Origin: Escherichia phage garuso | Sequence record: MN850566.1 | Length of the DNA stretch: 64,000 nt | Reading direction: 5' to 3' (one strand) | Shown here: positions 61,774-62,568 of the stretch, one piece after another | Layout: each line of letters starts with the position of its first letter | Position numbering within the stretch: the stretch's first letter is position 1 | Position numbers and translations under genes: made by a program | Notes under the pieces: model-generated | Told to the model about the DNA's origin: nothing | Databases searched by the model: none | Seen by the model: only the letters and a program-made list of their open reading frames with translations

Positions 61774-61976
61774 TAACCTTAGTTTTCGTTGCGTAGCGTC
61801 TATTTTGCAAATTTAAAATAAATGCAAACGACAATGTTTTTCTGGCAGTAGCTTGATAGGCTAAACACCAGTGAGGTCTTCCAATCCCTCATCAAAGAAT
61901 TTGGCGTACTAGCCCACGGTATGATTAATAAGGTGGGCATCTTTAAGGGCTTTCTAAGAGAGTCTTTAAAGATAAT

Positions 61977-62053
61977 TACGGGGCGTATCTCAGCGGTCTT
62001 CTAAACCGCCGTTAACCGAGTAAGTGGAGTATGCGGGTTCGAGTCCTGCCGCC
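61977..62053 (+). tRNA. non-canonical tRNA-like element (Arg TCT-type anticodon hairpin)
   Basis: Good acceptor CGGGGCG/CGCCTCG, T-arm GCGGG-TTCGAGT-CCTGC and CCA, but only clear internal hairpin is GCGGT-CTTCTAA-ACCGC in D-arm position. Confidence 0.35.
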
Positions 62054-62202
62054 TCGACCAATTTAGTTAGCAGATTACTTAGACGACCTTATCGGGTCTC
62101 CGTGTAAGGAGGTGGTCTGTATCTCATGTTTTCCAGAACATGTAAATAATCTGAGAAGGGGCTTTACAGTGTTGTGAAAATACGGTAAGCTTCGAATTAT
62201 AG

Positions 62203-62285
62203 TGTGGGACGATGTTAAGACTCTAAGGCATGAGCAACGGCCTCCAAAACCGTTTCAAAGTGGTTCAACTCCTCCGTCCCATGCC
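62203..62285 (+). tRNA. tRNA-Trp-like (anticodon CCA), atypical
   Basis: Acceptor GTGGGAC/GTCCCAT plus CCA; anticodon arm ACGGC-CTCCAAA-ACCGT; oversized D region and weak T-stem; may be pseudogene. Confidence 0.4.
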
Positions 62286-62299
62286 AAAGTCTTATTAGG

Positions 62300-62387
62300 G
62301 GTAGGTAGCGGCTAATGGTAGCCAAACTGTCTTGAAAACAGTTGCCACTGTAGAGATACGGTGAGGGTTCGACTCCTTTACTTACCG
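62300..62387 (+). tRNA. tRNA-Ser (anticodon TGA), long variable arm
   Basis: Acceptor GGTAGGT/ACTTACC, anticodon arm ACTGT-CTTGAAA-ACAGT, long variable arm, T-arm GAGGG-TTCGACT-CCTTT; CCA not encoded. Confidence 0.65.
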
Positions 62388-62544
62388 CCTAATAAGATTT
62401 AAAGCCAAGCTTCATTCGGATGTTGCTTTGGTATCCCTAGTGTATTGTCGTACACGCACAGTAAAGCACCTAGTAGGTGTCACGGAGAAGAGATAATATC
62501 AAGCTCTCCAAAGGTTCTAGTCACCGGATTAAACAAGACTATGC

Positions 62545-62568
62545 AAAGACCTTTTTAGGTCTTTTTAG
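62545..62568 (+). terminator. terminator-like hairpin inside tRNA cluster
   Basis: AAAGACC-TTTTT-AGGTCTTT followed by TT. Confidence 0.45.

Follow-up and report, generated by a model that had tools for sequence, protein, structure and literature searches.

A candidate phage RNA with the mRNA-like half of tmRNA and complementarity to host ssrA in the tRNA cluster of Escherichia phage garuso

The Felixounavirus (Felix O1-like) tRNA cluster of Escherichia phage garuso contains a stretch, interval A, that resembles the mRNA-like half of tmRNA. Computational analysis shows that it is conserved and structured, that it carries a short frame constrained at the codon level, that it lacks a tRNA-like domain, and that it is complementary to host ssrA. 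The window, i.e., the whole stretch of DNA that was analyzed, comprises 64,000 nt (MN850566.1). Our reading of the sequence, which is a tentative one, is that interval A may encode a phage RNA of ~160–200 nt that would descend from the mRNA-like half of tmRNA, pair with host tmRNA, mask its template, and tether the phage's own template instead. This RNA is herein called the tag RNA. Its features are the following:

61746–61774, plus strand: sigma-70 promoter TTGACA-17-TATAGT, 11/12 matches, the strongest within 59500–64000
61781–61977, plus strand: predicted primary tag RNA, taken to begin at the transcription start and to end where the following tRNA-like gene begins, at a presumed RNase P site
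61781–61938, plus strand: conserved core of the tag RNA (profile match 61780–61939)
61781–61809, plus strand: 5′ leader antisense to host tmRNA (RNAduplex against E. coli ssrA)
61804–61828, plus strand: palindrome UUUGCA...UGCAAA, by which the leader would pair with its own resume codon in the free RNA
61824–61859, plus strand: tag frame GCA AAC GAC AAT GTT TTT CTG GCA GTA GCT (ANDNVFLAVA) followed by TGA TAG, without a start codon and preceded by AUAAAU
61842–61871, plus strand: hairpin P5, CUGG...CCAG plus an inner GC-rich stem, with the stop codons in the loop; helices 1–2 are 90–100% paired
61872–61904, plus strand: H-type pseudoknot with stem 1 UGAGG/CCUCA; the loop CCAA pairs with downstream UUGG
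61912–61938, plus strand: hairpin H3 with the conserved loop GGUAUGAUUAAUAAG; the stem has five differing sequences across lineages, and the loop is near-constant
61941–61971, plus strand: Felixounavirus-specific 3′ hairpin CUUUAAGGGCUUUC-UAA-GAGAGUCUUUAAAG of the minimum-energy fold, absent in other lineages

The promoter is real, as the original prediction had it, and only its position moves by one base, from 61745–61773 to 61746–61774. It is kept in the relatives L001 and L110, and BUCT541 as well as Erwinia phage Tian contain an analogous promoter 5′ of the antisense seed. Transcription would start at about A61781, the first base of this seed. In Tian as in the window, the tag RNA sits between the promoter and the next tRNA. 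The stretch behind the promoter had been described as free of tRNAs and of ORFs. Neither ARAGORN nor Rfam finds a tRNA in 61781–61977. The second part of the description stands insofar as only mechanical ORFs of 27–46 aa occur, but it passes over the start-less frame of 10 codons at 61824–61853 with its TGA TAG.

A profile built from relatives matches the window once, at 61780–61939 (nhmmer, E = 3.7e-38), and the part 61815–61939 matches unannotated DNA adjoining tRNA genes in unrelated phages (blastn). At least 760 phage records contain the tag RNA, as do 689 of the 5426 complete E. coli genomes, i.e., about one genome out of eight. Its carriers include Felix O1, Vi01-like, IME11, SSU5, P1, and lambdoid phages, and the whole core is present in P1 and in the lambdoid phage HK633. 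It is kept across at least six unrelated phage lineages with 71–95% identity. The lambdoid copies, read by eye, end at a terminator-like GC-rich hairpin that is followed by a T run. A pattern scan yielded 120 viral loci; together with previously fetched loci and the window, these give 131 copies in 29 sequence clusters. The search pattern required the GCA resume codon and codons 7–10, and the conservation of these positions is partly owed to it.

No record annotates an RNA at the matches, where overlapping features read "none" or "hypothetical protein"; this includes hundreds of well-known genomes such as P1, Felix O1, and lambdoid prophages. Likewise, no Rfam family reaches its threshold over the tag RNA in the window and 15 related loci, and no title or abstract from a literature search on tmRNA/ssrA and phage or prophage antisense RNA describes such an RNA. 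tmRNA is viewed as a single molecule or as two pieces of one gene, with its tRNA and mRNA functions physically coupled. The search tools depend on the tRNA-like domain, and a template-only relative would therefore be invisible to them.

The tag frame encodes ANDNVFLAVA, compared with the host tag ANDENYALAA. Its resume codon GCA lies 12–14 nt after a structured element and is preceded by A at −4 and U at −5 in the window. The frame chosen in E. coli tmRNA depends chiefly on A86, which occupies −4, and U85 is found at −5 (PMC2481249). All 131 loci have the GCA codon, which the pattern required; independently of the pattern, all 131 have A at −4 and −3, and the base at −5 is U or C. A stop (TAA, TGA, or TAG) occupies codon 11 in 130 of the 131 loci, and codon 6 is aromatic in equally many (130/131) by means of four different codons. 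At codons 3 and 10, variation is confined to the third position throughout these loci. The tags follow the consensus AN[DE]xx[YF]LAVA; two tags external to the pattern are ANDDVVLMAA of IME11 and ANDDLMMVAA of P1. The C terminus is Ala-rich and hydrophobic, and the stop lies in a helix. In addition, CAUAAAUGCAAACGAU from around the resume codon of the IME11 homologue gives a nearly perfect alignment with the consensus of the Rfam permuted tmRNA.

Such a frame could in principle belong to a conventional small-protein gene, in which either the tag frame or the overlapping AUG frame (MQTTMFFWQ-stop) is normally initiated. Many members indeed have an AUG that overlaps their resume codon (AUAAAUGCAAAC), but CUG or GUG is found instead in SSU5-type and Cyrano-type members, and no Shine–Dalgarno sequence is evident by eye. 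Since the amino-acid pattern that is conserved belongs to the GCA frame, in which a start codon is lacking, we regard normal initiation as extremely improbable.

The tag frame is embedded in a conserved fold, and compensatory changes are found in three helices of the tag RNA. The pseudoknot and P5 together have 91% of cells paired and 8 pairs with changes on both sides; none of 500 shuffles is as good. Stem 1 of the pseudoknot contributes 3 pairs with both-side changes, and one position of stem 2 is GC in 14, AU in 9, CG in 8, and unpaired in none of the sequences. This single pseudoknot downstream of the template is supported by covariation; equivalents of PK1, PK3, and PK4 are not established, and other lineages carry variable downstream helices. 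The loop of H3 was considered as a second contact to the host (UGAUUAA with ssrA UUAAUCA), and this 7-nt match is at chance level.

Retention and structure also bear on the question of whether there is an RNA function at all. Interval A might be a decayed fragment of a captured ssrA, a spacer or processing sequence of a tRNA precursor, or a DNA element, e.g., the target of a homing endonuclease. HNH or endonuclease VII insertions do lie nearby in relatives, and spacers of tRNA clusters get processed anyway. Nevertheless, such a lack of function appears very improbable given the conservation across six or more lineages at the above identity, the three compensated helices, the intact 10-codon frame, and the presence of its own strong promoter both in this phage and in other lineages. 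Furthermore, the family profile matches none of the host ssrA genes.

Compared with tmRNA (SsrA, RF00023; permuted form RF04321), the tag RNA shares the Ala resume codon preceded by A (−4) and U/C (−5), the 10-codon tag that starts with AND and has a hydrophobic/Ala end, the stops in a hairpin loop (helix 5 of tmRNA), the pseudoknot directly downstream, and a near-identical sequence around the resume codon. It differs in that an acceptor stem with G3·U70, a T arm, and a CCA end are missing, in that it has one supported pseudoknot instead of four and ~160–200 nt instead of 363, and in that its 5′ segment is antisense to host tmRNA. The tmRNA models align to the template part only. Their scores are below the gathering score of 47, with 15.4 bits for RF00023 and 14.3 bits for RF04321 in the window and 33.1 bits for RF04321 in IME11, and in neither the window nor relatives does ARAGORN call a tmRNA. 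Two elements of Vi01 were considered as parts of a tRNA-like domain and rejected: the comparison with lambdoid loci assigns GGUGCUC-AAACA-GGUUUUCGU, a possible tmRNA 5′ end/acceptor, to a hairpin module in the flank, as its 3′ strand, and a T-arm-like sequence ~390 nt downstream is not joinable to this 5′ element.

The region further downstream is more complex than the original prediction, which divided 61780–62568 into just two non-tRNA intervals. It consists of the tag RNA, two atypical tRNA-like genes, a tRNA-Ser, and two conserved spacers; the RNA identity of interval A, the coverage of the resume codon by the palindrome, and the two tRNA-like genes had been missed. The downstream features are the following:

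61979–62060, plus strand: D-arm–less tRNA-like gene, Rfam tRNA 31.7 bits (gathering 29), missed by ARAGORN
62061–62203, plus strand: conserved spacer with UAAGGAGGUGGUCUGUAUCUC at 62105–62125 and the hairpin CAUGUUUUCCAGAACAUG at 62125–62142
62204–62286, plus strand: atypical tRNA-Trp–like gene with anticodon CCA, 21 bits with the Rfam tRNA-Sec model (below threshold), uncalled by ARAGORN
62300–62389, plus strand: tRNA-Ser
62390–62645, plus strand: interval B, conserved and structured, abutting tRNA-Leu

The first of these genes is of relevance for the missing domain, as the tag RNA might supply the coding part of a phage tmRNA that is split in two, with a phage-encoded acceptor/T-arm piece acting in trans. 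The RNA from 61979–62060 is the candidate for this second piece. It has the anticodon arm GCGGU-CUUCUAA-ACCGC (UCU, Arg), no D arm, a variable region of 23 nt that includes a small arm, G3·U70, A73, and an encoded CCA; its acceptor and anticodon stems covary. Homologues occur in 262 phage records, mainly of Felixounavirus, phi92-like, and jumbo phages. Natural two-piece tmRNAs are known (Rfam RF04321), and the gene lies directly downstream of the tag RNA with the alanine identity pair G3·U70 in four of five sequences. Against this, one homologue has G3–C70, the canonical anticodon loop UCU is kept, and L110 carries a canonical tRNA-Arg(UCU) at this position. Inspection reveals no complementarity between the two RNAs. 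Moreover, the tRNA-like gene stands alone in JohannJBalmer and vB_Ec-M-J, and no D-arm–less copy is seen in those parts of the loci of BUCT541, Vi01, P1, and lambdoid phages that were inspected. A split tmRNA is thus quite improbable: because it is an independent gene elsewhere and is not seen at the inspected tag RNA loci, 61979–62060 is not the missing tRNA-like domain of the tag RNA.

The leader of the tag RNA points to the host tmRNA as a partner. In the predicted pairing, AGUUUUCGU faces host tag codons 3–6, GCG(U)C the region of the resume codon, and UAUUUUGC the A-rich stretch upstream. Leader nucleotides 1–29 pair with E. coli ssrA 76–106 at −26 kcal/mol, of which a net energy of about −7 kcal/mol is left after opening costs (RNAduplex); across the family, this net energy ranges from −7 to −14 kcal/mol, and the 5′ toehold is free. 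The duplex runs used 34-nt leaders; 205-nt RNAs against whole ssrA gave meaningless end-to-end duplexes. The best leader duplex falls on E. coli ssrA 67–108 in 28 of 29 clusters, a consistency that counts as non-independent evidence since the family members are homologous. Individual duplex energies are moderately better than those of shuffled leaders, with 0–45 of 200 shuffles being as good, and the leader:ssrA alignment score is 28.7 versus 15.3 ± 2.5 for shuffles. The longest Watson–Crick run between leader and ssrA measures 7–11 nt and, for 57 of the 61 leaders, is located at ssrA 96–98; against the tag RNA itself, the longest such run measures 5–6 nt for 58 of the 61.

The seed AGUUUUCGU is situated at or near the predicted 5′ end, is unpaired in the fold, and is followed by two further collinear blocks. 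It is invariant, while the RNA's own codons 3–6 vary, and it lies 40–60 nt 5′ of the tag in all 131 loci. For the third block there are two alternatives, UAUUUU or UUUGCGGG/UUUGCGGC, and each matches adjacent host segments. In other lineages, the complementarity of the leader extends into the 3′ strand of host pseudoknot 1. The host ssrA target is invariant across Enterobacterales genera, and a prediction that Erwinia ssrA reads UAGAAGCA failed. As the pattern found the tag in Enterobacterales loci with this invariant target, phage–host covariation is impossible to use as a test. If the pairing is real, replacing AGUUUUCGU by AGUAAACGU would be expected to prevent it, and matching changes in ssrA to bring it back.

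The palindrome of the original prediction is confirmed as the inverted repeat TTTGCA-N13-TGCAAA. In the minimum-energy fold of the tag RNA, nucleotides 7–27 pair with 34–56, and AGUUUU is free. Because part of the leader pairs with its own resume region, the leader could also have a purely internal structural role.

The leader would also suit a pure antisense inhibitor or sponge of host trans-translation, in which the template is a mere seed cover or a vestige and stays untranslated. Such an RNA would draw on the same complementarity to ssrA and on the folding of the leader onto its own resume region, and the inhibition of host tmRNA by a phage has a precedent: mycobacteriophage DS6A encodes a tRNA-like-only, CDS-less tmRNA that inhibits host tmRNA (PMC11915505). 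We nonetheless consider this reading unlikely, as the constraint on the codons is hard to explain without translation. It comprises the stop in 130/131 loci despite switching among TAA, TGA, and TAG, the aromatic codon 6, the synonymous or conservative changes at codons 3 and 10, and the invariant A at −4. The DS6A RNA and the tag RNA have in common that both are phage-encoded partial tmRNAs (PMC11915505). However, DS6A keeps the tRNA-like domain without a tag frame, and the tag RNA shows the reverse; base-pairing is proposed for the latter as opposed to competition for SmpB or the ribosome.

In the preferred reading, in which the phage RNA both masks the host template and supplies its own, the 5′ end AGUUUUCGU...GCGUC.UAUUUUGC is complementary to a host tmRNA segment that spans the A-rich stretch ahead of the resume codon and everything up to and including tag codon 6. 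Once expressed, the free RNA would have its leader folded onto its own resume region, with the first six bases serving as a toehold. Pairing with host tmRNA in the cell would then mask the host resume codon and template and release the phage template, which would at the same time become tethered to the alanine-charged tRNA-like domain of the host and to SmpB. Rescued ribosomes would consequently translate ANDNVFLAVA and not ANDENYALAA. The phage may benefit from this exchange; the phage tag resembles the host tag, and the advantage of swapping is not obvious. The placement of a trans-tethered template by SmpB and the ribosome is hypothetical.

A wider and rather doubtful proposition is that numerous phages of enterobacteria, among them Felix O1-like, Vi01-like, P1, SSU5-like, and lambdoid ones, use a trans-acting tag-swap RNA of this kind to reprogram ribosome rescue. 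If true, the tag swap would be the first tmRNA template given in trans by a parasite, and the leader the first natural antisense regulator of tmRNA. Phages whose leader works as proposed would directly control host ribosome rescue, by either blocking or hijacking it. This would bear on the ssrA dependence of some phages, on defences that cleave tRNA or mRNA and thereby stall ribosomes, and on the extra RNAs in tRNA clusters.

Other phage RNAs offer partial parallels. The prophage anti-sRNAs AgvB and AsxR of pathogenic E. coli, which Tree et al. reportedly described in 2014, are said to mimic the mRNA targets of Hfq-dependent sRNAs. Like these, the tag RNA would base-pair with a host noncoding RNA, and its lambdoid copies lie in the same late-region neighbourhood; it differs in that its target would be tmRNA and in that it comes with a translatable template. 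The tRNA region of phage T4 encodes the small stable RNAs species 1 and 2. These too are non-tRNA RNAs among phage tRNAs, presumably co-processed with them, and they are not known to carry a tag frame.

The spacer 62061–62203 is conserved in sequence, and no compensatory changes are seen in it. Its motif UAAGGAGGUGGUCUGUAUCUC is also found in Erwinia phage Tian, and we take its first 10 nt to be a perfect Shine–Dalgarno complement of the 16S rRNA 3′ end. In the tRNA-Trp–like gene, the D region is enlarged and the T stem is weak; its anticodon stem covaries at 4 pairs and its D stem at 1 pair, and the CCA is kept.

Interval B contains no tRNA in 62390–62645, in line with what had been claimed for it. 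Its hairpin 62402–62432 is replaced wholesale in sequence between relatives, and the block 62460–62551 is nearly invariant. A terminator-like hairpin had been proposed at its end. The hairpin AAAGACC-TTTTTA-GGTCTTT exists at 62545–62564, but it is weak, and it fails the terminator criteria of the scan because the T run is part of the stem. Furthermore, it competes with a hairpin of ~90 nt at 62555–62644. Homologues of interval B are seen in Felixounavirus only. The general suggestion of additional small RNAs amid the tRNA genes therefore fares differently for the two intervals. For interval A, it is supported on comparative grounds by the strong promoter, conservation across families, covarying helices, and a conserved promoter or processing context; for interval B, it is a guess because there is no functional clue, no promoter of its own, and no convincing terminator.

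Upstream of interval A, in the region 58262–60855, lies a gene for a protein with a predicted Ro60 fold, followed by four Y-RNA–like hairpins. The alignment-based AlphaFold model of the protein (pLDDT 86.9) matches 2i91_A over its full length (E = 3.7e-8, TM 0.66). This match comes from the alignment-based model only, as the single-sequence model was unusable (pLDDT 44), and sequence and profile searches of the PDB with the protein found nothing. The four hairpins at 60009–60855 have a conserved bulged stem, the fourth encloses a permuted tRNA-like domain, and the Rfam YrlA model does not match them. A Y RNA identity was also considered for interval A on account of the Ro60-like neighbour; it does not fit there and would rather fit these hairpins. 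A Ro60/Y RNA system, in which a TROVE plus vWA protein is expected beside stem-loop RNAs with a conserved bulged helix, one of them with a tRNA-like domain, may be present in the window. Along with the tag RNA, the two atypical tRNA-like RNAs, and more than 20 tRNAs, the Ro60-like protein and the Y-RNA–like hairpins would belong to a wider toolkit by which this phage maintains the translation apparatus.

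The window represents the tRNA cluster of a Felixounavirus, a Felix O1-like myovirus. Its segment 61700-62650 shares 99.5% identity with Escherichia phages allfine and momo, and some part of it is matched by 973 phage records. In the window, 18 tRNAs are called by ARAGORN and one more by Rfam at 61979-62057. The original prediction described 61780-62568 as promoter-driven non-tRNA intervals and candidate small RNAs. Its strong promoter is present as TTGACA-17-TATAGT (61746-61774), the best of the region with 11 of 12 matches; the following ~200 nt are free of tRNA folds and harbor ORFs of a mechanical kind only, and the palindrome noticed therein reads TTTGCA-N13-TGCAAA (61804-61828). 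The second interval is tRNA-free as proposed, here over 62390-62645. Its terminator-like hairpin AAAGACC/GGTCTTT (62545-62564) did not qualify as a terminator and competes with a 90-nt hairpin at 62555-62644. Two tRNA-free stretches stand, but the range does not simply consist of non-tRNA intervals because it also includes tRNA-Ser and two atypical tRNA-like genes, one at 61979-62060 and one at 62204-62286. Downstream of the first interval, the following features are distinguished:

61979-62060, + strand: D-arm-less tRNA-like RNA with anticodon UCU; stems covary; present in 262 phage records
62061-62203, + strand: conserved spacer; sequence conserved, compensatory changes absent
62204-62286, + strand: atypical tRNA-Trp-like RNA; anticodon and D stems covary, CCA kept
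62390-62645, + strand: interval B, the second tRNA-free interval, before tRNA-Leu; Felixounavirus-specific candidate RNA

Interval A (61781-61938, + strand) is the core of the tag RNA, a tmRNA-type tag template, and constitutes a conserved, structured, promoter-driven element that extends far beyond garuso. The stretch 61815-61939 matches unannotated DNA of Klebsiella siphoviruses, Vi01-like Ackermannviridae, the podovirus IME11, and the plasmid-phages SSU5 and Cyrano with 71-81% identity, and the overlapping stretch 61776-61908 is 80% identical in Erwinia Kolesnikvirus. At every locus examined, the tag RNA sits in a gene-free gap adjoining tRNA genes. A pattern scan of IMG/VR yielded at least 120 loci, which, together with loci fetched earlier and the window, form a comparison set of 131 copies in 29 sequence clusters. 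Carriers include lambdoid prophages (annotated example, HK633), with the element between the Q antiterminator/PR'-tR' region and the holin gene, and phage P1, with the tag RNA between dmt and the P1 tRNA genes. A search with a lambdoid copy as query returned at least 760 phage records; of 5426 complete E. coli genomes, 689 contain the same element, in most cases on a P1/SSU5-like plasmid. None of the Rfam families covers the tag RNA. The nhmmer profile of the family finds a single match in the window (61780-61939, E = 3.7e-38), one in each of 132 phage loci, and none in 81 host smpB-ssrA loci. Interval A is very probably a genuine RNA gene that descended from the template domain of tmRNA.

The tag frame begins at 61824 with GCA AAC GAC AAT GTT TTT CTG GCA GTA GCT TGA TAG, which encodes ANDNVFLAVA followed by two stops, as compared with ANDENYALAA in E. 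coli tmRNA. Other lineages carry ANEEMYLAVA, ANDNTFLAVA, ANEDTYLAVA, ANDEQFLAVA, and ANDAQFLAVA, IME11 carries ANDDVVLMAA, and P1 carries ANDDLMMVAA. Like the host tag, the phage tags retain an AND motif, an aromatic residue, and an Ala-rich end, a resemblance that leaves little evident advantage in exchanging one for the other. The frame is directly preceded by AUAAAU and lacks an in-frame start codon within the window. Codon constraint was read across the 131 loci at those positions that the search pattern leaves free. Herein, positions -4 and -3 are A in 131 of 131 loci, and -5 is U or C. Codon 3 is GAA, GAC, or GAT; codon 6 is TAT, TAC, TTC, or TTT in 130 of 131; codon 10 is GCC, GCT, or GCG; and codon 11 is a stop in all but one (113 TAA, 15 TGA, and 2 TAG). 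The frame, which ordinary initiation cannot enter, is under purifying selection at the level of its codons. In E. coli tmRNA, A86 (position -4) is nearly universal and the most important determinant of frame choice, U85 tolerates C, pseudoknot 1 is separated from the resume codon by 12 nt, and both the pseudoknots and the tag sequence are replaceable (PMC2481249). The permuted-tmRNA consensus of Rfam aligns nearly base for base to CAUAAAUGCAAACGAU of the IME11 copy; the score of 33 bits lies under the gathering score of 47 because the template part alone aligns. The window gives a weak match to RF00023.

Structure was assessed on an alignment of 31 sequences. A stop-codon hairpin and an H-type pseudoknot just 3' of it are 91% paired and include eight pairs with changes on both sides, with none of 500 shuffles being as good. 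One pseudoknot pair is GC in 14, AU in nine, and CG in eight sequences and is unpaired in none. In the next hairpin, the loop GGU(G/A)UGAUUAAUAA is constant and the stem occurs in five different sequences. A tRNA-like domain is absent from the tag RNA. ARAGORN found no tmRNA, neither in the window nor in the relatives tested. In both the window and Erwinia phage Tian, about 200 nt separate the sigma-70 promoter from the next tRNA, and the whole tag RNA must fit in between. The lambdoid copies that were read end in a terminator-like hairpin with a T run behind it. Lacking the defining tRNA-like domain, the tag RNA does not count as a tmRNA sensu stricto.

Two candidates for such a domain were rejected. 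An apparent acceptor strand in Vi01 belongs to a flanking hairpin module, and the RNA at 61979-62060, despite G3.U70, A73, and CCA, is a separate gene. Its homologue stands alone in JohannJBalmer and vB_Ec-M-J, no copy occurs in the stretches read of other tag-RNA carriers, and relative L110 has a normal tRNA-Arg(UCU) in its place.

Further structures surround the tag RNA elsewhere. In the non-Felix loci L003, L005, L010, L116, L134, and others, repeated modules of the form GG-UAAGAGCAUUG-(variable insert)-CAGUGCUCUU-UCC border the tag RNA. Some of the inserts resemble tRNAs, such as GCGACGUCGGAGAUCGCC...GGUAGAGGGUUCGAAUCCCUACC, which occurs in P1 and lambdoid prophages. The modules may serve in processing or stabilisation or act as a scaffold receiving tRNA-like units. 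In Vi01 (L004, about 3360-3435), a stretch ~390 nt 3' of the tag resembles the 3' end of enterobacterial tmRNA (GGAUGUAAGG...GGGUUCGACUCCC...CGGCUCCAC). A matching 5' acceptor strand and CCA were not found for it, and it may be the relic of an ancestral complete tmRNA. In Tian (L007, 1290-1465), an unannotated RNA of ~170 nt with a tRNA-type acceptor stem, T arm, and CCA (GGGUGAUUCUG...GAGAGGUUCGAAUCCUUAAUCACUCGCCA) and an interior of roughly 100 nt lies immediately 5' of the tag-RNA promoter.

The leader of the tag RNA (61781-61809) contains a conserved 5' seed that is collinearly complementary to the template region of host tmRNA, the product of ssrA. It is conserved only in AGUUUUCGU(C)...GCGAC(U)..., followed by UAUUUU or UUUGCGG(G/C). 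The host tmRNA reads 5'-GUAAAAAGCCGCAAAAAAUAGUC GCA AAC GAC GAA AAC UAC-3', as verified in annotated E. coli ssrA. Block A of the leader is the reverse complement of host codons 3-6, block B that of AGUCGC spanning the host resume codon, and block C that of the host A-run or the 3' strand of pseudoknot 1. For 34-nt leaders, the best duplex falls at ssrA 67-108 in 28 of 29 clusters (-23 to -35 kcal/mol), with 0 to 45 of 200 shuffles being as good. The longest perfect Watson-Crick run with ssrA measures 7-11 nt and is located at ssrA 96-98 in 57 of 61 distinct leaders; with the downstream sequence of the tag RNA itself, it measures 5-6 nt in 58 of 61. Local alignment of the 61 leaders to antisense ssrA scores 28.7 on average versus 15.3 +/- 2.5 for shuffled leaders. 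The seed shows no covariation with the lineage-variable codons 3-6 of its own RNA and instead matches the host sequence, which does not vary among Escherichia, Enterobacter, Raoultella, Pantoea, Erwinia, Serratia, Pectobacterium, Providencia, Morganella, and others. Transcription in the window is predicted to start at the first base of the seed. In the minimum-energy fold, leader nucleotides 7-27 are base-paired to the resume region of the same RNA, corresponding to the palindrome, and AGUUUU stays free. Net binding to ssrA with both partners opened is estimated at -7 to -14 kcal/mol. Pairing of the tag RNA with host tmRNA is, on balance, somewhat favored.

The main rival explanation, that the tag RNA only inhibits host tmRNA, is unlikely, and the codon-level constraint on the tag frame speaks against it. 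Phage tagging is tentatively proposed instead. The free tag RNA would hold its own resume codon closed, and its toehold would begin pairing on the single-stranded host template. Strand exchange would hide the resume codon of the host together with the determinants upstream of it and would also expose the phage template, then hanging where pseudoknot 1 normally sits. The A/U-rich linker before the resume codon comprises 12-14 nt in the phages versus 11-12 nt in host tmRNA. Finally, the tRNA-like domain of the host and SmpB would bring stalled ribosomes onto the phage tag. This full chain, from closed RNA through toehold, strand exchange, and template exposure to phage tagging, is possible, with the odds somewhat below even.

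Ordinary tmRNA genes are known in some phages, as indicated, for example, in PMC9004378. Mycobacteriophage DS6A has a tag-less, tRNA-like-only tmRNA that inhibits host tmRNA (PMC11915505); the tag RNA is the converse, comprising the template half only. The current tmRNA database pipeline begins with ARAGORN and Rfam-type hits (PMC11915505), which need a tRNA-like domain. No description of a template-only tmRNA relative or an antisense tmRNA regulator was found in the literature, as far as incomplete coverage extends.

Regarding the remaining range, the D-arm-less RNA keeps its anticodon loop CUUCUAA on a covarying stem. Within the spacer, UAAGGAGGUGGUCUGUAUCUC at 62105-62125 (+) is common to Felixounavirus and the Erwinia Kolesnikvirus phage Tian (L007, about 1826-1846). 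Its first 10 nt presumably constitute a perfect Shine-Dalgarno complement of the 16S rRNA 3' end; it is followed by no more than a 7-codon ORF in the window and by no ORF in Tian. Interval B contains a hairpin with a sequence that is exchanged wholesale among relatives, a near-invariant block of ~90 nt, and a long hairpin abutting tRNA-Leu.

Two further features concern a candidate Ro60-like system:

58262-59677, + strand: gene of a DUF2828 + DUF7788 protein (Pfam), just upstream of the tRNA cluster
60009-60086, 60175-60245, 60631-60710, and 60718-60855, + strand: four Y-RNA-like hairpins between tRNAs, downstream of the Ro60-like gene

The protein, named 'RNA-binding protein' in some records, is confidently predicted to adopt a Ro60 (TROVE + vWA) fold. 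Its alignment-based AlphaFold model (pLDDT 86.9) has Ro60/Rsr chains as top PDB matches along its full length (2i91_A, E = 3.7e-8, TM 0.66), among them also a Thermus phage Ro60. Each hairpin starts with CAGAAGACCNNNTACAGCAA (four copies, 0 expected by chance), ends with GGUCUGG, and forms a conserved bulged stem, in which an AGA bulge lies between the outer stem of 4 bp and the helix AGACC/GGUCU. Within the fourth, a T arm, a closed acceptor-like hairpin, and a D-like arm make up a circularly permuted tRNA-like domain. Bacterial YrlA Y RNAs have the same architecture of a bulged stem enclosing a permuted tRNA-like domain (PMC4201824), although the Rfam YrlA model gives no match. The hairpins are candidate partners of the Ro60-like protein. 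Directly 3' of the fourth, a long inverted repeat, AUUAUCUUUGUAGAUAAG ... CUUAUCUACAAAGAUAAU, surrounds ~100 nt (60856-61001, +); with 98-100% conservation among close relatives, it is a further candidate structured RNA.

Between tRNA-Met and tRNA-Ile, a 164-aa ORF (61167-61661, +) with a C-terminal HNH-like motif has no Pfam match at E <= 0.01. It is absent from the close relatives L001 and L002, and other relatives have insertions of HNH or endonuclease VII type at different sites of the tRNA cluster; this variation is a homing-endonuclease insertion polymorphism. Outside the cluster, a group I catalytic intron is located at 9648-9923 on the - strand (Rfam RF00028, 63.3 bits, above the gathering score).
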